Shown here: piece after piece, positions 499 through 15,804 of the stretch
Layout: each line of letters starts with the position of its first letter
Position numbering within the stretch: position 1 is the first letter of the stretch
Origin: Halalkalibacterium halodurans
Lineage (GTDB): Bacteria > Bacillota > Bacilli > Bacillales > Bacillaceae_D
Assembly (NCBI RefSeq): GCF_004376175.1
Contig: NZ_SNUY01000046.1
Coordinates: forward strand, 1-32,000
Length of the DNA: 32,000 nucleotides
Direction: 5' to 3'
The notes under the pieces: model-generated
Database searches by the model: none
What the model was told of the DNA's origin: nothing
The model's input: the letters and a program-made list of their open reading frames with translations, nothing else
Translations under genes and position numbers: made by a program

Positions 499-1896
499 TT
501 ATCCAATCGACCCTTCCATTTCGAACTTGATTAGACGGTTCATTTCAACCGCGTATTCCATTGGAAGTTCTTTTGTGAATGGCTCAATGAAGCCCATGAC
601 GATCATTTCCGTTGCTTCTTCTTCAGAGATTCCGCGACTCATCAAGTAGAAGAGCTGATCTTCCGATACTTTAGAAACGGTCGCTTCATGCTCCAACGTA
701 ATGTCGTTGTTTAAAATTTCGTTGTACGGGATCGTATCTGAAGTGGATTCGTTATCCATGATCAGCGTATCGCACTCAATTTTTGATTTCGATCCTTGTG
801 ATTTACGGCCGAAGTGGGCAATTCCTCGGTAAGATACTTTTCCGCCCTGCTTGGAAATGGACTTCGACACGATCGTTGAGGAACAGTTTGGCGCCAAGTG
901 AAGCACTTTCGCTCCTGCGTCTTGGTGCTGCCCTTTTCCTGCGATCGCGATGGAAAGAATCGTCCCTTTCGCCCCTTCCCCTTTCATAATGACCGCTGGG
1001 TACTTCATCGTTAGCTTGGAGCCGATGTTTCCATCGATCCATTCCATTGTCGCGTTTTCGTATGCGACCGCACGCTTGGTTACGAGATTATACACGTTCG
1101 GCGCCCAGTTTTGGATCGTCGTATAACGGCAGTACGCATCCTTTTTGACAATGATTTCAACAACCGCACTATGCAAGGAGTTTGTTGTGTACACAGGAGC
1201 TGTACAGCCTTCTACATAGTGGACAGAGCTGTCTTCATCGGCAATGATAAGCGTACGCTCGAATTGTCCCATGTTTTCTGAGTTAATACGGAAGTACGCT
1301 TGCAATGGCGTCTCCGTTTTTACGCCTTTTGGTACGTAAATGAACGATCCCCCAGACCATACAGCCGAGTTTAACGCGGCAAATTTGTTGTCGGTTGGTG
1401 GAATGATCGTACCGAAGTATTCTTTAAAAATATCTTCGTTTTCCTTCAGAGCAGAGTCTGTATCTTTGAAGATAATTCCTAGCTCTTCAAGATCCTCTTT
1501 CATGTTGTGGTAAACCACTTCAGATTCGTACTGAGCGGAAACCCCTGCAAGATATTTTTGCTCTGCTTCTGGAATTCCAAGCTTATCGAATGTGTTTTTG
1601 ATTTCTTCAGGTACTTCATCCCAAGAACGCTCAGATTTTTCAGATGGCTTAACGTAATACGTGATGTCGTCAAAATCAAGCTCTGTTAAGTCTCCGCCCC
1701 ATTGTGGCATTGGCATTTTGTAAAATTGCTCAAGCGACTTTAAGCGGAAATCGAGCATCCATTGTGGCTCCTGTTTCATGCGGGAGATTTCCTCTACGAT
1801 TTCCCGAGTTAATCCGCGCTTCGAACGGAAAATCGACACGTCCCGATCAGAAAACCCATATTTGTATTCGCCGATTTCAGGCATTTTCTTTGCCAT
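499..1896 (-). CDS. sufB: Fe-S cluster assembly protein SufB
   Basis: The ORF translation from [25 protein letters not shown]... is collinear with Bacillus SufB. ATG at 1896 follows GGAGGG (1903-1908). It is the last gene of the suf cluster. Confidence 0.97.
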
Positions 1897-1933
1897 GGGA
1901 AAAACCCTCCTTTTATTCATTACACAAGGACCA

Positions 1934-4891
<2,958 letters not shown>

Positions 4892-5860: not shown

Positions 5861-5915
5861 CTCGTTTAATCTTTCACAAAGAAAAGAGGCTGTCTATATA
5901 AGTTGAATTTATCTT

Positions 5916-6482
5916 TTACAATCGAATGCACAATCGATCAATAACTTTTCTAGGTGAGTCATTTAACTCACGAATAAAAGCTTGCACATTTCTTCGAATC
6001 TCTTTAACAGAGGAATAAAAAAGGTTATTAATTACGTCTGATTTGAGCCATTTCCATAACCCTTCAATGAGATTTAACTCAGGGCTGTAAGGTGGTAAAA
6101 AAACCAATTCTAAACGATGTTGGTGGTTACGCAAAAAAGGTTCAATCAGCTTCGCATGATGAATACGGGCATTATCTAACACCATGACAATCTTACCGGT
6201 CGGATAGTGTTTCAATACCTTTTGAAGAAAACGAAGAAACGCTTCGGCATCGTATCGTTCTTCTTCTACACAAAGCACATCTCCCGTTTCATAATTAAGT
6301 GTACCGATGAGTTTGACACCCTGGTGCTTTCCATAAGTCGGAATGATTCGTTGCTTGCCTTTTAAAAACCATGTGTATTGAAGAGCTTGGTAATCCCGAA
6401 TCATCGACTCATCTTGAAAGAGAAGATGGTCAATCTCCTCATTTAAGAGTTTTTTTATAGGCAGGGAACGTCTCTTCCACAA
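5916..6482 (-). CDS. IS630-family transposase, DDE catalytic part (orfB, no independent start)
   Basis: Contains LFQDES..., VLDNARIHH and PPYSPELNLIEGLW, the DD(34)E-type motifs of the IS630/Tc1 superfamily. It lies in the +1 frame relative to orfA and overlaps it across the A7 run (T7 on the + strand, 6450-6456). Confidence 0.85.
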   Translation of the reverse strand: MWKRRSLPIKKLLNEEIDHLLFQDESMIRDYQALQYTWFLKGKQRIIPTYGKHQGVKLIGTLNYETGDVLCVEEERYDAEAFLRFLQKVLKHYPTGKIVMVLDNARIHHAKLIEPFLRNHQHRLELVFLPPYSPELNLIEGLWKWLKSDVINNLFYSSVKEIRRNVQAFIRELNDSPRKVIDRLCIRL

Positions 6483-6960
6483 ACTCTTTTTGTTTCAACG
6501 GGTCAGCTTTTGCCAGCGTATAAGTCGGTTTGGTATAACTAAGGCCTAAATCGTGTAAAAGTCGAGAGACACCACGAAGAGTATACGGTTGGTTCCATTT
6601 TTTCTCGATAAATGAAGCAATGATCTTTAACGTCCAATTATACTTAGCTGGGAAGCCAACATCTACGGGAAGTTTGGTCGCAATCACTTGAGCCAATTCC
6701 TGTTCTTGTTCGGGTGTTAATTTGCGTGGCGCTCCAGGTGATTGTCCCATGGTTAAGCCATCTAGTCCCTTTTCTTCGTAGGCATTCACATAGTTATAGA
6801 TAGTTTTTTCGGAACGCCCAATCATGGTTGTGATTTCTTTTTTAGAATAGCCTTGTAAATAAAAGTAAATCGCTTGATAACGTTCATACATTCGTTTATC
6901 TTTGGTCGTTTTCATCGCTGTAAGCAAGGTTTCGATTTCATGTTGACGTGAATGGGTCAT
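6439..6960 (-). CDS. IS630-family transposase, N-terminal HTH part (orfA)
   Basis: 173 aa with winged-helix/HTH-like segments (KEITTMIGRSEKTIYNYV; RGVSRLLHDLGLSY). Ends just after an A7 run shared with orfB. Confidence 0.85.
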   Translation of the reverse strand: MTHSRQHEIETLLTAMKTTKDKRMYERYQAIYFYLQGYSKKEITTMIGRSEKTIYNYVNAYEEKGLDGLTMGQSPGAPRKLTPEQEQELAQVIATKLPVDVGFPAKYNWTLKIIASFIEKKWNQPYTLRGVSRLLHDLGLSYTKPTYTLAKADPLKQKEFVEETFPAYKKTLK

Positions 6961-7302
6961 CTCGTTCCTCTCCGTTCATTGGTAAGTGTTACCCTTATAT
7001 TTCAACAGAGAGTAATTGTAATCCTTTAATTCAACTTATATAGAAAGCGAGCTCCAACAAATTTCTTCACTTCATGACCCCCATCCCCTATATGTAATTT
7101 TCATCTAGTCTGACTAAAGTGACAATGAATCGATCGTAAACTTCCCTGAAAATAAACCTCCCCTCGTTTGCTATATCCTATTCTAACTTAGTTGAATTAC
7201 GATTCCAAGGTGAATGAACGATGAAACGATAAATATTAAATAAAATTGTTGGAAAACTTTTCGACTTTCGGGAAAATGACCCGTATTAATTATCTATAGA
7301 AG

Positions 7303-8276: not shown

Positions 8277-8313
8277 GGAAAAGACGACCGAAATGGGCGT
8301 TCGACCGTCTTTT
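8277..8313 (-). terminator. Intrinsic terminator of the AgrD-like peptide gene
   Basis: In the minus-strand RNA, GACGGUCGAA / UUCGGUCGUC forms a 10-bp stem with two G-U pairs, followed by UUUUCC. On the + strand the same positions are A-C mismatches, so the hairpin is specific to the minus strand. Confidence 0.75.
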
Positions 8314-8320
8314 CTTTACA

Positions 8321-8443
8321 TTATTTTTGTTTCTTTAAGCTATTAGGAATCTTTGGCGCATATATGAGTGGGCTAGACGCATTGACAAACGCTTTTGAGA
8401 TTCCAAGAGTCGCTTTTGAAATGACTTTAGCTGTTCTCTTCAT
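8321..8443 (-). CDS. agrD: AgrD-like autoinducing-peptide precursor (40 aa, below the ORF-track cutoff)
   Basis: Hand translation gives MKRTAKVISKATLGISKAFVNASSPLIYAPKIPNSLKKQK*. GGAGGTG lies 7 nt upstream of the ATG (8443), and a terminator lies 8 nt past the stop. The layout is a basic amphipathic N-terminal part, a short core, then a Pro-containing charged tail (KIPNSL). That Pro sits 10 residues after Ser23, matching the Cys-to-Pro spacing in S. aureus AgrD as I recall it. Confidence 0.6.
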   Translation of the reverse strand: MKRTAKVISKATLGISKAFVNASSPLIYAPKIPNSLKKQK

Positions 8444-8589
8444 TCGTTTCACCTCCCTCTATAAATTAAGATTTTCTTCAAAATGCTTTAAATATCTTAG
8501 AATTTCATTGCCTTTTGTTATCCTCTGATTAGATGAAACTTGCATTTCATGCATTTGTTGGAAATATGAATGCCATCCTGGTAGAGATC

Positions 8590-8842
8590 ATGCTTTCTCG
8601 CTTTAAAAATATGATCGCACCAGTGGATCTCCACATTTCTCTGGGGGTTACCCTCCCATTTCTCTCAGGGTCTTTGCCCGCACATTCCTTCGTCCAACCT
8701 AACCAGAGGTGGAGGCCTGTAAAAGCTCCTTTGCAGGGTCTATGCCCGAATGGTGAAATTAATCAACAGGCTTCTCCGTGCTTCGCTTTTCAAGGATCTG
8801 CACACCTAGATATTTAAAGATATTTGTGTTTCTTCAACATGA
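8590..8842 (-). ncRNA. Candidate IS110/IS1111-type bridge (seek) RNA in the 3' non-coding arm
   Basis: A roughly 250-nt non-coding stretch just 3' of the transposase stop, GC-richer by eye than its flanks. It holds several local hairpins (for example CCTGCAAAGGAGCTTTTACAGG) and an internal direct repeat AGAGAAATGGGAG / AGAGAAATGTGGAG. The + strand ORFs here have no RBS. Confidence 0.3.
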
Positions 8843-10126
8843 CTAAGCAGCATTCTGTATTTGTTGCAAGCGGATGTGTCCGAGACATTTTTCTCCATTG
8901 TAAGACACACGCTTGTGTCCTAAGCTAAATAACACGCGAATCAACTTACAGCACAACGCGATCATGGATTGTTGTTTTTTCAACGGATTCTCGGAGCGTG
9001 TCGTTAAGTACTCATGCATTTGCTTGAACTCCCGATTCTTCGCCACCATGGGGCGTATCGCTGCATACAACAGGGATCTCAGTTTGGGGCGTCCCCGCTT
9101 GGTAATGCGGGTTTGACCTCTGAACTTGCCTGAGGTATTTTCTCGCAGATTGAATCCTGCCAGTTTTTGAACCTGTCGTGGGTGCGTGTAGTTGGACAGA
9201 TCGCCAACCTCAGCCAGGAAGCCAGCCACTGTCACTAGTCCCACGCCTGGAATACTCATCATGTAGGGCACAGCTGGAATCTGCTCTAGTAATGCTTCTA
9301 CATCTTGCATGAGCTGTTCCATTTGTCCACACAAACACTGGTATTGTTCCATCAAGCTTTGGAGTTCTTGCCTAGCCATTGACAGACCTTCCGTAAGACC
9401 AACAGAACGCTTGGCGGCCGCCACAAGCGCATTGGCTCGCTTGATCCCTATGGCTCGTTTCACTTCTTGCTTCCAGTGTCTTAGGATCTTTTCCGCACCC
9501 AGATTGATGATTTCTTGCGGGAGAGGAAACGCCTCTAGCGTCATCAGTGCAGCCTTTCCTTCCCAAATCTTAAACACCTCATGAAATTCAGGGAAAAAGC
9601 GATCCAGCCAGTTGAGAATACGCCCCCGAACGCGTTGTAAGTCTTCTTGTAGACGGTCTCGCAGGTTCATCCCATTACGTAATTCAGCATATATGCCAGT
9701 GGGGACTTGGGGTTCAGAGTACCGTCCGTCTTTGACCAATTGAGCGATGACTCGGGCATCCTTTACATCATTTTTGGTGGGCGAATTGTCATCTAATTCC
9801 TTGCTCTTCTTCACATGCATCGGATTGACGACAACATACTTAATCCCTTCATGGCGCAGAAACTGGGCAAATGCCATCCAGTAATGCCCTGTGGGCTCAA
9901 AACCTACAATGACATCCGGTTTGGCATGTTCTCGCATGAGGCTCTTCATCCACAAACGAAATCGTTGAAATCCGGCTCTGCTGTTTTCAATGTTCATTGG
10001 CTTGCCAAATTCAATTCCTCTGGCATCTTGAGCTCTAGCCACATGGTTCTCCTTGGCGATATCCACGCCAATAACGAGTGTTGATTCGGTGATTTGCTTG
10101 ATTTTGTGATTTTGGTTATACTTCAT
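8843..10126 (-). CDS. IS110-family (DEDD) transposase/recombinase
   Basis: 427 aa. N-terminal RuvC-like DEDD motifs are VIGVDIAKENH, GFEPTGHYW and NDVKDARVIA. The C-terminal Transposase_20-like region reads IPGVGLVTVAGFLAEVGD...SGKFRGQTRITKRGRPKLR. AAGGAGG precedes the ATG. Confidence 0.93.
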   Translation of the reverse strand: MKYNQNHKIKQITESTLVIGVDIAKENHVARAQDARGIEFGKPMNIENSRAGFQRFRLWMKSLMREHAKPDVIVGFEPTGHYWMAFAQFLRHEGIKYVVVNPMHVKKSKELDDNSPTKNDVKDARVIAQLVKDGRYSEPQVPTGIYAELRNGMNLRDRLQEDLQRVRGRILNWLDRFFPEFHEVFKIWEGKAALMTLEAFPLPQEIINLGAEKILRHWKQEVKRAIGIKRANALVAAAKRSVGLTEGLSMARQELQSLMEQYQCLCGQMEQLMQDVEALLEQIPAVPYMMSIPGVGLVTVAGFLAEVGDLSNYTHPRQVQKLAGFNLRENTSGKFRGQTRITKRGRPKLRSLLYAAIRPMVAKNREFKQMHEYLTTRSENPLKKQQSMIALCCKLIRVLFSLGHKRVSYNGEKCLGHIRLQQIQNAA

Positions 10127-10222
10127 CTTGAGTCCTCCTTCGTACTAATTAAGGATCAGTAGCTACTGATACCTCGTATCGTACAGGAGGGCTCTTTCTG
10201 TTTCAAACCTCAAATTCTTTCA

Positions 10223-10801
10223 TTACAGGAATGCTCCTTTCAAGATGAACCGATTGAGCTGCCTCGTGACCTTTAGGCCAATAGGCGTAAGGAGCACCCC
10301 TTGTAATAGAACCCCGAGAACGAGGCCTTGAGCCGACATAAACATTGCAAGAATGATAAAAAGAACGATGAGGATGTAAGCTATCCGTTTCTTCCGCCGC
10401 TCCCAATGCTCTGTATGTACTACTTGATGAGCCTCATAGTATGGAGCGTATTTCCAAATCAACAGTCCCCCGCTAATTCCATAAAGAATCCAAGCATAGT
10501 TGTTTGCAAACGGAACCCAGAAAATTGCCGTGATGAACAGAACGGACAGCAAAGTACAGCCAATAGAATGATCAAGGTGAGCACCTCCCGTCAACACCCT
10601 CATGAACGTGAAGGATAGTGCGATTTGGAGAAACAGCCAAATCTCTCCGTGGAGAAGGCCAACCGCTATGACGAGCAATAAAGTAAAGAGATAGTGGAGA
10701 ATGATCGTGAATCCAAACGTTAGAACCTCAACCGATTCTGTTTCTTCTGCATTCAATGCTTTCACTTGATGTGCCAACGTTAAAGCAAGACGTTCAAGCA
10801 T
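10223..10801 (-). CDS. agrB: AgrB-family accessory gene regulator protein B (AgrD-processing membrane peptidase)
   Basis: A polytopic membrane protein of about 192 aa with the motif MRVLTGGAHLDHSIGCTLLS. His and Cys are 7 residues apart, as for the catalytic H77/C84 of S. aureus AgrB. ATG at 10801 follows a G-rich SD. Confidence 0.85.
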   Translation of the reverse strand: MLERLALTLAHQVKALNAEETESVEVLTFGFTIILHYLFTLLLVIAVGLLHGEIWLFLQIALSFTFMRVLTGGAHLDHSIGCTLLSVLFITAIFWVPFANNYAWILYGISGGLLIWKYAPYYEAHQVVHTEHWERRKKRIAYILIVLFIILAMFMSAQGLVLGVLLQGVLLTPIGLKVTRQLNRFILKGAFL

Positions 10802-10812
10802 CAAACCCCCCC

Positions 10813-12087
10813 CTATTTTCTTATAAAGCGGATGCTACATTCTAGCGGGCGAATTTGTGAATCAACTTTCGCGTTATTTTGCTGAAAGTACATAAGATCA
10901 TCGACAATCTTAAGTGTTGTCACATCTTGCTCTGAAAGCTCTAGGTTGCTCGATATGCGATACTCTAACGTACTATCTGTCATGTTAATCTGCAGCCTGA
11001 CAAACAAATCGGACATACCTGTTCGGTACAATGCAACGAACACCTCGTCCAATATCCGACTTAAATAACGAATTTGCCACAAAGACGTTGGGCGAACGTG
11101 CTCAAGAGTCGCTGACACTTTAAACTCGACACCTAATAACCGTGATAGCTTTTTCTTATTGATGAGAAAGGCATACATCACTTCATCTTCAGATTTGAAC
11201 AAATGATAGCTCTCATCTTTCACACTAAAACTAGGTAGTTTTTTTATCGCGACTTTCTTTTCTACATACTCACGAATTAGTGGCGCCGACTCTTTTTCAC
11301 AAAGCTTTAAAATCGCATTGGAATGGATGCTGTATTCATTTTGAATCGTTTCGACAATACTTGATAGTTGCTGCTCTTGATCTAGATAAAATTTCTTTGC
11401 CTCCATCATCCGCTTCGCTTGAAAGATGGAGTGAAGAACGTAGTACGTAGATAATACAAGGAAAAGCAATACGATAATGAAGAGAACAAATAAATGTTTG
11501 TTTAACACTGCACTTGTCGTCATCACATAAGATGCGAAGCAAATGAACAGAAACATCATAAACGCACTTACAAATATAACGCGTTTTTCCTTCGTCGAAA
11601 GCAAATCTCCTTCAATATGTCCGCGAAATTCGTTAAGCTGATAGCTCCCTCGGTAAATGCCGTATGAGGCTGTTGTTACAAGGAGGAACGTACCGCTTTG
11701 AATCAGCAACGTTACATCGGTATAAGACAGCAAGACGTCCCAATAACTGTAAGAGGACATGGCGGTAATCGCTTCGACAATGATTAATTGGGTAAAGATA
11801 TAAAATCCATATCCACTGCTCGTCACGACTAACGACTCTAATGAATTAAATCGAAATAACCATCTGACAAGGATAAACAAAACGGTCATTTGAATGAAAA
11901 TCACAATCGGCAAGTGCAAATGGGGGACCATTCGTAACACAAAAATCGATAAAAGACTCAATAACGTACCAATCGCTACAATTGATAAACGATAGCGGCG
12001 GAACGTATAACCAAATAATAGAACGGGAAACGATAAGAGGGCGCTCCATTCCAAAATGGATATTAGGAAGGTTAAAATGTGATACAT
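10813..12087 (-). CDS. AgrC-like 7-TM receptor protein with a degenerate (pseudo)kinase domain
   Basis: 424 aa with about 7 predicted TM helices in residues 1-215. A DHp-like helix follows, retaining one His (EYSIHSNAILKL versus AgrC RHDYVNIL). A C-terminal GHKL-like fold reads LSRILDEVFVAL where AgrC has ILDNAIEA (Asn replaced by Glu), and no GxGxG G-box is present. GGGGAG SD lies 8 nt before the ATG. Confidence 0.7.
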   Translation of the reverse strand: MYHILTFLISILEWSALLSFPVLLFGYTFRRYRLSIVAIGTLLSLLSIFVLRMVPHLHLPIVIFIQMTVLFILVRWLFRFNSLESLVVTSSGYGFYIFTQLIIVEAITAMSSYSYWDVLLSYTDVTLLIQSGTFLLVTTASYGIYRGSYQLNEFRGHIEGDLLSTKEKRVIFVSAFMMFLFICFASYVMTTSAVLNKHLFVLFIIVLLFLVLSTYYVLHSIFQAKRMMEAKKFYLDQEQQLSSIVETIQNEYSIHSNAILKLCEKESAPLIREYVEKKVAIKKLPSFSVKDESYHLFKSEDEVMYAFLINKKKLSRLLGVEFKVSATLEHVRPTSLWQIRYLSRILDEVFVALYRTGMSDLFVRLQINMTDSTLEYRISSNLELSEQDVTTLKIVDDLMYFQQNNAKVDSQIRPLECSIRFIRK

Positions 12088-12117: not shown

Positions 12118-12915
12118 TTAAATCGTCATGTTTTTCCCTTTTGGAATGGTTAATGTGACAACCACACCTCTTTTTGGATGGTTCTTGATCTCAAGCGTCC
12201 CCTCCATGGCTTCTATAATGGTTTTGCATATGGGCAATCCTAAGCCTGTTCCCTCATCCTTCGTCGTAAAAAAAGGATAAAAAATGTTCTCTAATTGATC
12301 CTCAGCAATTCCTGGTCCATCGTCATGAATGACAAGAATCACTGCGTCCTGATCATTGGAAAGCTTGATGGAAATGGTTCCTTCTTCCTCTATTGCTTCA
12401 ACAGCGTTTTTAATAAGATTAATAAGTACTTGCTCAAAGCGGGTTACATTACCTGAAATATATAAGCCTTCTGCCAAATCTGTGCGAAACCGGATCTCTT
12501 TCTTGTCTTGCTTCATTTTCTGAATGAGAATAACCTTTTCAATGCTACGCTTGACATCAATCAATGACAAGTTTTCCTCGTCAAGATGGGCTTTGGCGAA
12601 CGTTAATAACTCTTGAATGAGCGCCTCCATACGAATAGCTTCATCTTTAATGATAGACGTATATTGGGCAATCGTGGGATCAGAGCGAATCGTTTCATTT
12701 TGCTCAAGGTATTGAGTAAAACCGATAATCGAGGTTAGAGGATTTCTTATTTCATGAGCAAAAAATGCCGCCATTTTTCCGATAGCTGCATGATAATTCT
12801 CATTTCCATCCTTATAATCATTTCCGATCTCACTTAGACGCTCTTGATATGATTTCTTTTTTTCTATTGGCTTTGTCTTTCTTTGCAGCCAGCTTTTAAA
12901 AAATGGACGGTTCAT
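12118..12915 (-). CDS. Soluble, sensor-less histidine kinase (HisKA + HATPase_c; sporulation-kinase-like H-box)
   Basis: H-box FAHEIRNPLTSIIGF, N-box LINLIKNAVEAI, G1 DDGPGI and G2 GTGLGLPICK are all intact. Only about 50 residues precede the H-box, with no TM segment. The preferred start MNRPFF at 12915 has GGGAG 7 nt upstream; the longer TTG start at 13002 has no SD. Confidence 0.85.
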   Translation of the reverse strand: MNRPFFKSWLQRKTKPIEKKKSYQERLSEIGNDYKDGNENYHAAIGKMAAFFAHEIRNPLTSIIGFTQYLEQNETIRSDPTIAQYTSIIKDEAIRMEALIQELLTFAKAHLDEENLSLIDVKRSIEKVILIQKMKQDKKEIRFRTDLAEGLYISGNVTRFEQVLINLIKNAVEAIEEEGTISIKLSNDQDAVILVIHDDGPGIAEDQLENIFYPFFTTKDEGTGLGLPICKTIIEAMEGTLEIKNHPKRGVVVTLTIPKGKNMTI

Positions 12916-13265: not shown

Positions 13266-14123
13266 TTACCCCATCGGAATGACCGCGCCATTGTACTGCT
13301 CTTCGATAAACTGACGAACTTCTTCAGATTGAAGAACTTCAACAAGTACTTGGAACTCAGGGCGATCTTGATCCTCTGCACGAACAACAATTAAGTTTGG
13401 CTGTAAGACATCTTCTGACTCAAAAGCAATTCCATATTGCTCGATGTCGACGCCACCCTCTAATGCATAGTTCGTATTGATCGCCACAGCATCTCCTTCA
13501 CCATTTTCAAAAGATGGCGCAAGGAAACGTGCCTCTACTTGCTGTGAGCCAAATACGAGATTTTTCGGGTTGGAAGAGATATCATCAATTGTCGCAAGCT
13601 CCCCTTCTTCTACGTCAAGCTCAATCAGTCCAGCTCGTTCAAAGATCGGAAGGATTCTTCCATGGTCGCTAATCGAGTCACTGAAAATAATCTCTGCTCC
13701 TTCTGGAAGCTCTTCAAGGCTGCTATACTCTTTTGAATAAATTCCAATCGGTTCGGCATGAACTTCACCGAGGCTTACGAAATCATAGTCATATTCTTCA
13801 ATTTGCTGAGCCAAATACCCTGGCGTTTGGAAATAGTTCACATCAATATCTCCATCTCTTAACGCTGTATTAGGTAAAATGTAATCAGTAAATGTTTCAA
13901 TTTCGAGCGTAATCCCCCGTTCTTCAAGTAGAGGTGCCGCAAATTCAAGCACTTCAGTATGCGGAACAGCAGAAGCCCCGATTTTAATCGTTACAGGCTC
14001 ATCCACTGATGCTTCTCCTTCTGCTTCTTCAGCCCCTTGCGTGTCCTCTTCACTAGTTCCACCGCAAGCAACAAGTGATAACGAAAGCGTCGCCGCGCCA
14101 ATAATGCTTAAAAACTTTTTCAT
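13266..14123 (-). CDS. metQ: Methionine ABC transporter substrate-binding lipoprotein MetQ
   Basis: Lipobox LSLVAC-GG and an NlpA/MetQ-like sequence. It is the last gene of the metNPQ cluster behind an S-box. Confidence 0.9.
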   Translation of the reverse strand: MKKFLSIIGAATLSLSLVACGGTSEEDTQGAEEAEGEASVDEPVTIKIGASAVPHTEVLEFAAPLLEERGITLEIETFTDYILPNTALRDGDIDVNYFQTPGYLAQQIEEYDYDFVSLGEVHAEPIGIYSKEYSSLEELPEGAEIIFSDSISDHGRILPIFERAGLIELDVEEGELATIDDISSNPKNLVFGSQQVEARFLAPSFENGEGDAVAINTNYALEGGVDIEQYGIAFESEDVLQPNLIVVRAEDQDRPEFQVLVEVLQSEEVRQFIEEQYNGAVIPMG

Positions 14124-14138
14124 TTGAAAAAATCCCCC

Positions 14139-14801
14139 TTATCGTTTGTCTGTTATATTTGTGAAAAAATCGCCGATCCATTGGATGATAAAAACGAGAA
14201 AAAGGATCGTGATTGTTGCCACCAATGTAATCTCAGGGTTGTTTCGTTGAAACCCTTCAAGAAAGGCAAAGTGTCCTAATCCACCGGCACCAATGACACC
14301 GGCCATCGCTGTATAGCTCACAAGAGCGATCGCCGTTACGGTTATCCCTGAAATAAGCGCTGGGAATGATTCAGGAATAAGGACACGGCAAATAATTCGA
14401 AAATGGCCGGCCCCCATCGCCTGTGCCGCTTCAATCACCCCTTTATCGATCTCACGCAAGGCAATTTCGACCATCCGGGCGTAAAAGGGAGCAGCACCGA
14501 TAATTAACGCAGGTAACGCCGCATTGGCTCCTAACATGGAACCGAACAGCGCTCGGGTAAATGGAATTAAAAGAACAATTAAAATAATGAACGGGATGGA
14601 GCGAAAAATGTTAACTATCGCACTGAACACCGTATGAATGGCAACATTTTGCCACATGTTTCCTTTGCTCGTTAAAAACAGAATTAAACCGAGAATGATT
14701 CCGATGACAAAGGTCGCCACAACAGATACGGACGTCATGTAAATCGTTTCCTTCGTCGCTTCCCATAAAGCGTCCCACTTAAAATTCTCAAGCACCGGCA
14801 A
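14139..14801 (-). CDS. metP: Methionine ABC transporter permease MetP
   Basis: A 220-aa polytopic protein with an EAA-like loop (EAAQAMGAGHFRII). Overlaps the metN stop. Confidence 0.9.
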   Translation of the reverse strand: MPVLENFKWDALWEATKETIYMTSVSVVATFVIGIILGLILFLTSKGNMWQNVAIHTVFSAIVNIFRSIPFIILIVLLIPFTRALFGSMLGANAALPALIIGAAPFYARMVEIALREIDKGVIEAAQAMGAGHFRIICRVLIPESFPALISGITVTAIALVSYTAMAGVIGAGGLGHFAFLEGFQRNNPEITLVATITILFLVFIIQWIGDFFTNITDKR

Positions 14802-15804
14802 TCACCTCCAATTCTAGTTGCTGCTCATGCATATAGGTAATCGCCTTTTCAATTTCGTCCTTCGGTCCATCGAGGTGGATAAACAACGTTCCATACGAAC
14901 CTTCTTGTGTTTTTGAAATTTTTCCTTGCAAAATGTTGACGTCGACTGCAAAGGTGCGAATGAGATTTGTAATGAGGGGCTTTTCAGCCGACTCCCCGAC
15001 AAAGGTTAGTTGGACGATGCGTCCTGATTTCACCTCATTGAGCAAATGCTGAACCGTCTCTTCCGGCTCTGTTACTTGTTTTACAAACTCTTTTGTTATA
15101 TGCTCCTTCGGTTTACGGAAAACATCGAGGACTGGACCTTCCTCAACCACTTTTCCCGCTTCCATGACGGCGACCCGATGGCAAATCTTTCGAATGACAT
15201 GCATTTCATGTGTAATTAACACAATCGTAAGACCGAGCTTTTCGTTAATGTCCACCAGGAGATCGAGGATCGAATCCGTCGTTTTTGGATCAAGGGCAGA
15301 AGTTGCTTCGTCACACAACAGCACCTTCGGGTTATTGGCAAGCGCTCGCGCAATTCCGACACGTTGCTTTTGTCCGCCACTTAATTGTGACGGATACGCC
15401 TCTTCTCGACCTTCCAAACCGACAAGATTGATCAGCTCATCGACTCGCTTTTCTCGCTCCTTTTTCGGAACCCCTGCAATCTCAAGTGGAAATGCAATGT
15501 TTTTTCTGACCGTTCGTGACCATAGCAAGTTAAAATGCTGAAAAATCATCCCGATTTTTTGCCGTTCGATCCGAAGGTCCCGATCGGAAAGCTTCGAAAG
15601 ATCCTTCCCCGCCACAATGACGCTTCCTTCTGTTGGACGCTCTAACATGTTGAGCATTCGAATCAAGGTACTCTTACCGGCACCACTATAGCCAATGACA
15701 CCGAAGATTTCCCCTTCATTTATTTTTAAATTTACGCCATCGACAGCGGTAACCGATCCCGTTTTCGCTTTAAAGACTTTTCTTATGCCGTCTAGCGATA
15801 TCAT
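14788..15804 (-). CDS. metN: Methionine ABC transporter ATP-binding protein MetN
   Basis: Walker A GYSGAGKST, signature LSGGQKQRV, Walker B LLCDEATSALD, and a C-terminal NIL/ACT-like regulatory domain. Confidence 0.93.
   Translation of the reverse strand: MISLDGIRKVFKAKTGSVTAVDGVNLKINEGEIFGVIGYSGAGKSTLIRMLNMLERPTEGSVIVAGKDLSKLSDRDLRIERQKIGMIFQHFNLLWSRTVRKNIAFPLEIAGVPKKEREKRVDELINLVGLEGREEAYPSQLSGGQKQRVGIARALANNPKVLLCDEATSALDPKTTDSILDLLVDINEKLGLTIVLITHEMHVIRKICHRVAVMEAGKVVEEGPVLDVFRKPKEHITKEFVKQVTEPEETVQHLLNEVKSGRIVQLTFVGESAEKPLITNLIRTFAVDVNILQGKISKTQEGSYGTLFIHLDGPKDEIEKAITYMHEQQLELEVIAGA

Follow-up and report, generated by a model that had tools for sequence, protein, structure and literature searches.

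A 40-codon ORF devoid of cysteine, encoded on the far side of an insertion from an agrB gene in Halalkalibacterium halodurans, raises the question of whether so short a frame could specify an agr-type autoinducer precursor and, if so, how its product might be cyclized and sensed. We examined it in the context of the 32,000-nt stretch of DNA in which it lies (hereinafter the window), and propose with reasonable confidence that it is agrD, the precursor gene of an agr-type peptide quorum-sensing cassette operating through the mechanism presented below. A full-text literature search for halodurans together with AgrD or agrB, or for the locus tags BH3474-BH3477, returned nothing relevant.

The agrD ORF and the insertion that separates it from agrB

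The ORF codes for the product MKRTAKVISKATLGISKAFVNASSPLIYAPKIPNSLKKQK and, in agreement with a preliminary description of this DNA, follows a GGAGGTG Shine-Dalgarno (SD) sequence with an 8-nt spacer, contains zero Cys residues and has Pro33 located 10 residues past Ser23 (Table 1). The sequence aaaggaggtg also precedes agrD in most other species. As an alternative start, the GTG at position 8452 (giving a 43-aa form) was rejected, since it falls inside the SD. The leader has a helical hydrophobic moment of 0.51 over residues 2-21, a value equaled or exceeded by 1.6% of shuffles, versus 0.52 for the leader of S. aureus AgrD-I. The hairpin 3′ of the stop codon, earlier taken to fold solely on the minus strand, does so on both (minus: -17.2 kcal/mol, z -3.8; plus: -16.0 kcal/mol, z -2.7); a simple terminator scanner flags it on the plus strand, and it is probably an ordinary two-way intrinsic terminator. 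We claim no agrD promoter, as the region has 12 promoter-like sites compared to 11.6 in shuffles, and Rfam yielded zero matches around agrD and in the insertion, even at E<=1. The ORF was unannotated only in the ORF track used for the preliminary description; in the public databases the identical peptide bears the NCBI name 'cyclic lactone autoinducer peptide [Halalkalibacterium halodurans]', and it has been named by JGI too.

Table 1. Coordinates of the agr locus and the inserted element in the window
Feature	Position	Strand	Remarks
Hairpin with A-tract and U-tract	8278..8314	-	directly 3′ of the agrD stop
agrD	8321..8443	-	40-aa AgrD-family propeptide; ATG at 8443, TAA at 8321-8323
agrD product layout			leader, residues 1-22 (amphipathic, basic); predicted macrocycle, Ser23-Ser24-Pro25-Leu26-Ile27; basic tail, 28-40, with Pro33 at +10
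agrD Shine-Dalgarno (GGAGGTG)	8450..8456	-	8-nt spacer, GGAGG to ATG
IS110-family insertion sequence	8457..10233	-	1777 bp; delimited by blastn against 8 conspecific empty sites and junction alignment
IS110-family transposase	8843..10126	-	427 aa
agrB	10223..10801	-	AgrB-family peptidase, 192 aa in the window strain
424-aa polytopic membrane protein (BH3476 family)	10813..12087	-	AgrC-like cytoplasmic fold (predicted), degenerate kinase motifs
Sensor-less cytoplasmic histidine kinase	12118..12915	-	265 aa; HisKA and HATPase_c only; longest ORF to 13002

The intact alleles of other strains have the gene order sensor-less histidine kinase, AgrC-fold membrane protein, agrB and agrD. In 8 conspecific contigs the last two overlap by 17 nt, with the agrD start lying that far ahead of the agrB stop, because of which they are probably translationally coupled; junction alignment further shows that the bases of the agrD SD double as the Gly-Gly codons of the ...KGGE tail of AgrB. 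In the window strain, an IS110-family element has cut agrD off from this processing gene. Its transposase is recognized by PF01548 (115.6 bits), PF02371 (79 bits) and NF033542 (239 bits; cut-off 140), and identical proteins are found under four NCBI accessions, all from H. halodurans. The insertion point, AAAGGAG|GTGAAAC, lies within the agrD SD and the final agrB codons. The ends of the element (CATTCC... / ...ATAGAG) have no terminal inverted repeats, and GAG/GGAG is common to both junctions with no long target duplication; two further independent sites occupied by 99.9% identical copies share the GAG. The family assignment thus combines a DEDD-type transposase with the absence of inverted repeats and of a long duplication at three sites. 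The non-coding ends comprise 107 nt on the 5′ side and a structured 386 nt on the 3′ side (3′ fold z -2.95), the latter without an Rfam match. Bridge-RNA guides are not claimed, 7-mer matches between the 3′ end and the target flanks being about at chance level.

The preliminary description, in pairing the peptide with "this AgrB", missed both the 1777-bp element lying between the two genes and the consequent alteration of the AgrB C-terminus. The AgrB protein itself is readily recognized (PF04647, 98.3 bits; cut-off 23), and its His75 and Cys82, seven residues apart, are retained here, invariant in its relatives and aligned with His77 and Cys84 of S. aureus AgrB. The element converts its ...KGGETNEENS terminus to ...KGAFL, with the loss of the last 8 residues (intact alleles encode 196-197 aa). 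The replaced tail, conserved across genera as KGG[ED]xxE[KE]x[SG], lies beyond residue 170, where the Pfam match stops. Only one public contig has the split allele, and with it the truncated AgrB; the forms on other H. halodurans contigs, among them the 4.2-Mb C-125 genome (BAB07194.1), are intact.

It is a serious possibility, which we nevertheless rate below even, that the window-strain locus is a decaying remnant, wherein the insertion abolishes autoinducing peptide (AIP) output by way of the AgrB tail or the silencing of agrD. Such decay would be in keeping with the position of the element between agrB and agrD, the replacement of 8 conserved AgrB residues, and the occurrence of the allele on one public contig when the others, C-125 among them, are intact. 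However, the conservation of the AgrB tail may merely reflect the overlapping SD and start of agrD, and the peptide is 100% identical between this and other strains, with agrD, its SD and its terminator unharmed: the insertion regenerates the SD, and agrD is hence still translatable. As for silencing, the minus strand of the IS 3′ end yielded no sigma-70-like promoter, which would favor it; against this, the transposase gene runs in the direction of the operon, and a scan of the minus strand from there to agrD detected nothing resembling a terminator, leaving read-through possible over the 1.78 kb that now separates agrB and agrD.

Family membership and the predicted serine-closed ring

The peptide matches NCBIfam TIGR04223 with 28.6 bits (curated cut-off 19; E 1.1e-6) across model positions 1-38 of 38; all 17 orthologues tested likewise exceed the cut-off. 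The preliminary description had recommended alignment to AgrD profiles and a search for small ORFs beside homologous agrB genes: the former succeeded with TIGR04223 and gave zero matches in Pfam, and the latter recovered an orthologous ORF that overlaps or closely trails the agrB 3′ end in 16/16 other-species loci (spanning Halalkalibacter, Salipaludibacillus, Anaerobacillus, Caldalkalibacillus and Lederbergia), besides the 8 conspecific contigs. The profile match and the conserved adjoining agrB bear out its view of the ORF as an AgrD-like propeptide, and by these sequence comparisons agrD is a real, conserved and already recognized member of the AgrD family.

Protein word-index searches with the single peptide recovered itself alone, and those with the 17-sequence alignment recovered 34 peptides, all of one subfamily and with no Cys-type AgrD among them; the link to canonical AgrDs was accordingly made with hhalign. 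The motif FVxASS[P/V]xx[H/Y/N]xP[K/R/N][I/V]PxSL, followed by a basic tail (net charge +2 to +4 in the subfamily), is kept in 34/34 of these relatives. Ser23, Ser24 and Pro33 are invariant, and ring positions 4 and 5 vary, such that 33 subfamily peptides, mostly derived from alkaliphiles, display 16 distinct predicted rings. Across the 16 other-species loci the core and tail have a pN/pS of 0.18, and synonymous sites are at saturation.

For the ring register we used eight reference AgrDs, the sequences of which were confirmed in the collection by exact look-up (AgrD-named, from the expected organisms) and the rings of which were taken from the table in PMC12312760. A Pro lies exactly 10 residues after the nucleophile in 8/8. 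Alignment of the subfamily profile to this set with hhalign (E 1.9e-5; probability 77.5%, modest in value and obtained with very short profiles) pairs three positions, Ser23/ring Cys, Pro33/invariant Pro and Leu36/Leu41. This coincidence of Ser23 with the ring Cys and of Pro33 with the +10 Pro supports the five-residue SSPLI lactone that had been predicted earlier, and the AgrD product is probably a serine-closed ring peptide. The Ser in place of Cys had been considered an oddity; it is in fact a constant of all 34 relatives and has precedents among AIPs that are established or listed as Ser lactones, namely those of S. pseudintermedius, of C. difficile AgrD2 (NSA[SSWVA]) and of E. faecalis (GBAP) (PMC12312760). 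The basic tail was rightly called unusual: YAPKIPNSLKKQK has a net charge of +4, against -6 to +1 in the eight reference AgrDs, an acidic tail being typical of the staphylococcal versions and not universal. In this tail there is no counterpart to the acidic residues found past the ring in the staphylococcal proteins. A Pro within the macrocycle is absent from the characterized five-residue rings in the alignment; listed rings with a Pro include C. difficile [CPWII] and C. botulinum [CVYQP] (PMC12312760).

With Ser23 and Ser24 both invariant, the nucleophile cannot be fixed by sequence alone, and we accord a small but appreciable likelihood to a different register, viz., Ser24 as the nucleophile (ring SPLIY, cleavage after Tyr28) or a ring of more than five residues. 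Ser24 equals Ser23 in its invariance, but Ser23 alone satisfies the +10 spacing to Pro seen in all the references. Residue 28, nearly fixed as His/Tyr/Asn, could suit a conserved ring position; nevertheless, both hhalign and the tails of the C. perfringens and Listeria peptides (ring followed by H/Y-x-P-x-x-P) make it the first tail residue. The ring of C. difficile AgrD2 is likewise listed as starting at the first Ser of A-S-S, and rings of six and nine residues, which would accommodate the larger alternative, are known from C. acetobutylicum and GBAP, respectively (PMC12312760). The two five-residue registers differ in calculated [M+H]+, with 498.292 for [SSPLI], 569.329 for A[SSPLI] and 683.372 for NA[SSPLI], continuing at 782.441 and 929.509, versus 574.324, 661.356 and 732.393 for the SPLIY series.

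Putative receptor-side genes and the proposed pathway

In 15/15 loci the gene for the 424-aa membrane protein immediately precedes agrB. Its sequence gave no match in Pfam (E<=1), NCBIfam or PDB, even with a 15-sequence profile, and phmmer against 1.84 billion proteins recovered only its own narrow family (23 representatives). Its AF2 model (pLDDT 82.8) features a DHp helix and an α/β ATP-binding-domain fold after the polytopic membrane domain, and finds as its best Foldseek matches the cytoplasmic module of S. aureus AgrC (6e95/6e52; 6e95_A E 4.3e-6); with the AgrC ATP-binding domain (4bxi) the TM score is 0.67 and the rmsd 2.8 Å over 131 columns. Going by predicted structure alone, it is a putative relative of AgrC in fold and a candidate peptide receptor. 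The kinase motifs are eroded: a putative phospho-acceptor His is present in 11/15 orthologues and absent in 4/15, neither the N-box Asn nor the G1/G2 glycines show conservation, there is no conserved Gly past residue 300, and the residue after the conserved Asp is mostly D/E. Profiles for HATPase_c, HATPase_c_5 and HisKA do not match it.

The gene directly upstream of that for the 424-aa protein, in 12/15 other-species loci, codes for the sensor-less kinase (PF00512, 58.6 bits; PF02518, 96.6 bits). Gene calls in the conspecific contigs give this kinase 265 aa, and its listed NCBIfam matches include AtoS, ZraS and KinD, all far below cut-off. No LytTR or Response_reg domain turned up in the cassette genes, among the best 25 of 62 families listed for the sequences flanking 15 related loci, or among the best 25 of 39 entries listed for 17 further, larger ORFs of the window. 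The cassette hence departs from canonical agrBDCA in having an AgrC-fold protein without kinase motifs and no AgrA LytTR regulator seen, a lack of the usual AgrC/AgrA pair that the preliminary description had passed over.

By homology to the staphylococcal, listerial and clostridial systems, we propose that the amphipathic basic leader keeps AgrD at the membrane, where AgrB would use His75/Cys82 to cut off the 13-residue tail after Ile27 and hold the peptide as an acyl-enzyme. Attack by the Ser23 hydroxyl would then yield the five-residue lactone S-S-P-L-I, with some protease trimming the leader prior to release of the peptide. The adjacent AgrC-fold protein is the most likely sensor; its ATP binding looks lost, and it may signal via the neighboring soluble kinase. 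In the window strain agrD, uncoupled from agrB, would be reliant on read-through from the co-oriented insertion. With AgrB altered and agrD uncoupled, this strain may lack a working system.

We consider it improbable that AgrB processes the peptide to a non-classical end, whether a product that is linear or rearranged or a signal with an output outside agr, for example to the sporulation phosphorelay by way of the orphan kinase. The cassette does lack an AgrA/LytTR regulator and a canonical AgrC, and its kinase is a generic HisKA enzyme with the above sub-cut-off matches to AtoS, ZraS and KinD; moreover, tail-less AIPs reportedly rearrange by acyl shift (PMC12180512). What favors a dedicated sensor instead is the conservation of the four-gene order, AgrC-fold membrane protein included, and sequence data are silent on output. 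That the ORF arose by chance in an AT-rich spacer and is no gene, as its mere 40 codons and lack of a Pfam match might suggest, has next to no probability, being refuted by the TIGR04223 match, by the 34 peptides from many genera under purifying selection and by the fixed location at the agrB 3′ end.

In itself the peptide adds little that is new, given that its gene is a recognized and previously annotated member of the AgrD family and that Ser-lactone autoinducers are already known. More speculatively, and in our estimate rather doubtfully, the cassette might represent a distinct agr branch of alkaliphilic Bacillaceae, with an obligate Ser-lactone, an AgrC-fold receptor without ATP binding that controls a sensor-less HisKA kinase, no AgrA, and output via an unlinked regulator; the oxygen ester could perhaps be an adaptation to high pH, and the insertion sequence may prefer SDs (2/3 sites), regenerating them. 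On the peptide side, the proposed branch would be marked by a Ser-Ser-Pro start that is invariant, by variation at two positions of the ring and by a basic tail. Characterized AIPs number only 43, from six species (PMC12180512). A compact AgrD subfamily with a defined precursor, a predicted ring and calculated masses makes the chemistry directly testable, and comparison of the window strain, where the operon is split exactly at the agrB/agrD junction, with the intact C-125 could reveal the roles of coupling and of the AgrB tail. If true, the pairing of an AgrC-fold pseudokinase-like protein with a sensor-less kinase would constitute an unusual wiring of a peptide receptor to a two-component system.

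Comparison with known agr-type systems

Among the known precursors, AgrD of the S. pseudintermedius/intermedius group (AIP RIPT[STGFF]) likewise has Ser for Cys, Pro at +10 and a gene placed after agrB, and its product is a five-residue lactone of the kind predicted here. Its tail, DEPEIPAELLEEEK, is strongly acidic (net -6) versus +4 in H. halodurans, and it belongs to a canonical agrBDCA with AgrC and AgrA and has no Ser-Ser-Pro motif, H. halodurans differing on both counts. C. difficile AgrD2, with the listed AIP NSA[SSWVA], has the same A-S-S start of the macrocycle as the predicted N-A-[S-S-P-L-I], with the first Ser listed as the ring former (PMC12312760); this likeness comes from the listed ring alone, and the agrB2D2C2A2 system, unlike that of H. 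halodurans, has its own AgrC and AgrA.

The tails of Listeria monocytogenes A[CFMFV], L. plantarum LamD [CVGIW] and C. perfringens [CLWFT] are closer than the staphylococcal ones to that of H. halodurans (CFMFV-YEPKSP, CVGIW-FETKIPDELRK and CLWFT-HQPEEPKSL vs SSPLI-YAPKIPNSLKK), those of Listeria (+1) and LamD (0) being near neutral in charge. All three are Cys thiolactones, and their loci encode or pair with conventional kinases and regulators. E. faecalis FsrD/GBAP shares a basic tail (GQTEKPKKNIEK) and the closure as a Ser lactone by an AgrB-family enzyme that is predicted for H. halodurans; unlike in H. halodurans, its macrocycle has nine residues, it is translated inside the fsrB frame, and its FsrC and FsrA are canonical.

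On the receptor side, the 424-aa protein resembles S. aureus AgrC (HPK10) in its polytopic N-terminal membrane domain, long helix and α/β domain, and in being encoded by a gene of an agr cassette, but differs from it in its unconserved kinase motifs and in the separate sensor-less kinase encoded next door. DivL-CckA and RetS-GacS are pseudokinase-kinase pairs, and furnish functional analogies only to the arrangement that we propose for H. halodurans.

The agrD gene, its conservation and its public record

The 40-aa ORF, classed as AgrD-like in the preliminary description, is almost certainly a true agrD: the peptide matches the TIGR04223 profile (NCBIfam AgrD) from end to end, scoring 28.6 bits where the curated cut-off is 19. 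All 17 orthologues tested also match this profile, while a Pfam search of the peptide returned no match. The neighboring AgrB shows 98% identity to H. halodurans AgrB, and its His75 and Cys82, invariant among relatives, correspond in alignment to the catalytic pair of S. aureus AgrB, His77 and Cys84. The agrB gene, which encodes 196-197 aa in eight further contigs of H. halodurans, shares 17 nt there with agrD. A search for related agrB genes, with one genome per species, recovered 16 loci from Halalkalibacter, Salipaludibacillus, Anaerobacillus, Caldalkalibacillus, Lederbergia and several Bacillus, and an orthologous small ORF lies at the agrB 3' end in every one, the check that the preliminary description had proposed. 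Most of these ORFs begin 13 nt before the agrB stop, preceded by aaaggaggtg, some with GTG or TTG start codons. Across species synonymous sites are saturated (pS 0.81), and pN over the core and tail is 0.14 (ratio 0.18). The ORF is a real gene, with selection acting on its protein product.

The proposed Shine-Dalgarno is indeed present, with a GGAGG-to-ATG spacing of 8 nt. A 43-codon form is unlikely, its GTG start sitting inside the Shine-Dalgarno. The hairpin 3' of the stop folds on both strands (-17.2 kcal/mol on the minus, -16.0 on the plus), so the claim of a minus-strand-only terminator was wrong; a simple terminator scanner assigned it to the plus strand, and the structure is of an ordinary kind, bearing both an A-tract and a U-tract and able to work in both directions.

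Nor is the gene unannotated in public records, since a word-index protein search found the identical protein named 'cyclic lactone autoinducer peptide [Halalkalibacterium halodurans]' in NCBI and JGI; this is the generic TIGR04223 product name, also borne by Cys-type AgrDs. A large-scale survey based on PF04647 and TIGR04223 already lists some 30,000 AgrDs, and notes that only 43 AIPs, from six species, are characterised (PMC12180512). The present peptide is one of the uncharacterised members of this known family.

Features of the agr-type cassette and its surroundings
Feature	Position	Strand	Remark
IS630/Tc1-like element	5897-7040		between yuzK and sufC
Its overlapping transposase ORFs	6439..6960, 5916..6482		match wHTH and DDE_3
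Hairpin	8278..8314		3' of agrD stop
agrD, 40-aa peptide MKRTAKVISKATLGISKAFVNASSPLIYAPKIPNSLKKQK	8443 to 8321	minus	ORF translation
agrD Shine-Dalgarno GGAGGTG	8456..8450	minus	GGAGG-to-ATG spacing 8 nt
IS110-family element	8457-10233		1777 bp; GGAG on both sides; conspecific empty sites
Two sigma-70-like sites	10178-10243	minus	left IS junction
agrB	10223..10801	minus	PF04647, 98 bits
424-aa membrane protein	10813..12087	minus	upstream of agrB
Histidine kinase	12118..12915	minus	upstream of agrB; HisKA + HATPase_c domains only
metNPQ-like ABC transporter operon	13266..15804		directly precedes the cassette
SAM riboswitch RF00162	16022-16134	minus	86 bits; upstream of the metNPQ-like operon

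An IS110-family element between agrB and agrD

Two features extend beyond the preliminary description, namely the separation of agrB from agrD by an IS insertion specific to this strain, and a non-canonical receptor side of the cassette. In blastn comparison with the eight conspecific contigs, collinearity breaks between 10234 and 8456, where the empty site reads ...TTGAAAGGAG followed directly by GTGAAACGAATG. The insert codes for an IS110-family transposase, has no terminal inverted repeats at its ends, and carries non-coding ends of 107 nt (5') and 386 nt (3'), the latter structured (z -2.95) and devoid of Rfam matches. The element has entered within the Shine-Dalgarno of agrD, whose bases double as the codons for Gly-Gly in the AgrB tail; as a result of the insertion AgrB ends in ...KGAFL, versus ...KGGETNEENS in intact alleles, and agrD retains a regenerated Shine-Dalgarno 1.78 kb from agrB, with the overlap lost. 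Only one public contig, 33 kb in length, has the ...KGAFL form (TES52405.1); the H. halodurans contigs with intact forms include the 4.2-Mb genome of C-125 (BAB07194.1). Given that the transposase is co-oriented with the agr operon and that the scanner found no minus-strand terminator-like site between it and agrD, expression of agrD by read-through from the IS is possible. Impairment of the system in this strain is a possibility, somewhat less likely than not.

IS copies 99.9% identical to one another occupy three independent sites (the present one and positions 1394-3170 of both L026 and L025/L027, further loci compared), all with GAG at both junctions. At two of the three, upstream of agrD and of a CsoR-like Trns_repr_metal gene (L026), the IS lies inside the Shine-Dalgarno, 8-12 nt before the start codon, is co-oriented with the gene and regenerates the Shine-Dalgarno; 7-mer matches of the IS 3' non-coding end to the flanks of the target are about as frequent as chance predicts. 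One of the two left-junction sigma-70-like sites combines a -35 (TTGAAA) from the agrB 3' end with a -10 from the IS, and might thus serve the transposase as a hybrid promoter; promoter-like sites across the region are in all no more numerous than in shuffles. A second strain-specific mobile element, the IS630/Tc1-like one, has a duplicated TA target, with TATAAGTTGAATT / AATTCAACTTATA as its terminal inverted repeats, and is missing from the eight other H. halodurans contigs.

The putative receptor side of the cassette

Of 15 loci examined in other species, 12 keep the gene order kinase, 424-aa protein, agrB, agrD, and all 15 have the 424-aa gene; the flanks vary between loci. No response regulator was among the matches listed, either for those flanks or for the ORFs scanned in the 32-kb window. 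The 424-aa protein has no profile match and no PDB sequence match, and belongs to a narrow family (23 representatives among 1.84 billion proteins), whose members in all cases neighbor agrB and mostly follow a sensor-less HisKA kinase. A structure model built on 16 family members (pLDDT 82.8) has six or seven membrane helices followed by a long helix and an alpha/beta domain. Structural comparison matches it best to S. aureus AgrC, both to the cytoplasmic module (6e95 and 6e52, E about 4e-6) and to the ATP-binding domain (4bxi, TM 0.67, rmsd 2.8 A). Among the 15 orthologues compared, the candidate phospho-acceptor His is absent in four, the N-box Asn is Asp or Glu in most, and the C-terminal domain has no conserved Gly. 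Given this AgrC-like fold with degenerate kinase motifs, we read the modeled protein as a putative receptor of AgrC fold, probably not itself a kinase, which would signal through the adjacent histidine kinase.

The three Halalkalibacter loci (L012, L014, L020) have neither the kinase gene nor the DHp His in the 424-aa protein. In Caldalkalibacillus mannanilyticus (L023) agrB (4001-4596) is split into two ORFs by a frameshift or assembly error, with agrD and the 424-aa gene intact.

Ring register, predicted lactone and precedents

As reference we used nine canonical precursors, each confirmed by exact match in the protein collection, where they carry AgrD names for the expected organisms, except FsrD, whose only match, within the FsrB cluster, is named 'hypothetical protein [E. 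faecalis]'; their mature rings are tabulated in a 2025 primer (PMC12312760). The spacing from nucleophile to Pro is exactly 10 residues in all eight reference AgrDs with five-residue rings, as it is from Ser23 to Pro33 here. A profile-profile comparison of the subfamily with these eight (probability 77.5%, E 1.9e-5) places Ser23, Pro33 and Leu36 on Cys28, Pro38 and Leu41 of S. aureus AgrD-I. The register originally proposed is thus supported computationally, with a predicted S-S-P-L-I macrocycle and AgrB cleavage after Ile27. Ser24, invariant to the same degree as Ser23, could instead be the nucleophile, or another ring could form, but this is unlikely. A five-residue lactone closed by Ser23 is a reasonable prediction and the somewhat favored product.

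All 34 peptides from an alignment-based database search contain FVxASS[P/V]xx[H/Y/N]xP[K/R/N][I/V]PxSL and have a basic C-terminal end, usually KKxK. Ring positions 4 and 5 vary, as expected for specificity determinants, so that the 33 peptides between them have 16 different predicted rings (e.g., SSPVI in the orthologue P0033). Halalkalibacter urbisdiaboli encodes two paralogues (P0011 and P0017) on the same 1.37-Mb scaffold of one genome, with predicted rings SSPLA and SSPFS, a difference suggesting that two specificity groups run in parallel within the same cell. A leader Cys occurs in seven of 33 orthologues (P0016, P0017, P0009, P0019, P0025, P0031, P0007), and in six of them it stands exactly 10 residues N-terminal to residue 25, in most cases the Ser-Ser-Pro proline (e.g., ...TTACSKVFVQASSP...), mimicking the canonical Cys-to-Pro spacing; the H. 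halodurans peptide has Ile there.

Of the features initially held to be unusual, the basic tail stands: its net charge (+4 over 13 residues here, +2 to +4 in the subfamily) falls outside the reference range of -6 to +1. The Ser ring in a peptide that, as was noted, has no Cys at all is no peculiarity of H. halodurans, as the Ser is invariant throughout the subfamily and has precedents elsewhere. The peptide is already annotated, typical of its subfamily and chemically precedented: like the predicted ring, the S. pseudintermedius AIP RIPT[STGFF] and the E. faecalis GBAP are Ser-closed, and C. difficile AgrD2, listed as NSA[SSWVA], shares the A-S-S start (PMC12312760). The tails of Listeria, L. 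plantarum and C. perfringens also resemble that of H. halodurans (Y/F/H-x-P/T-K/E-x-P).
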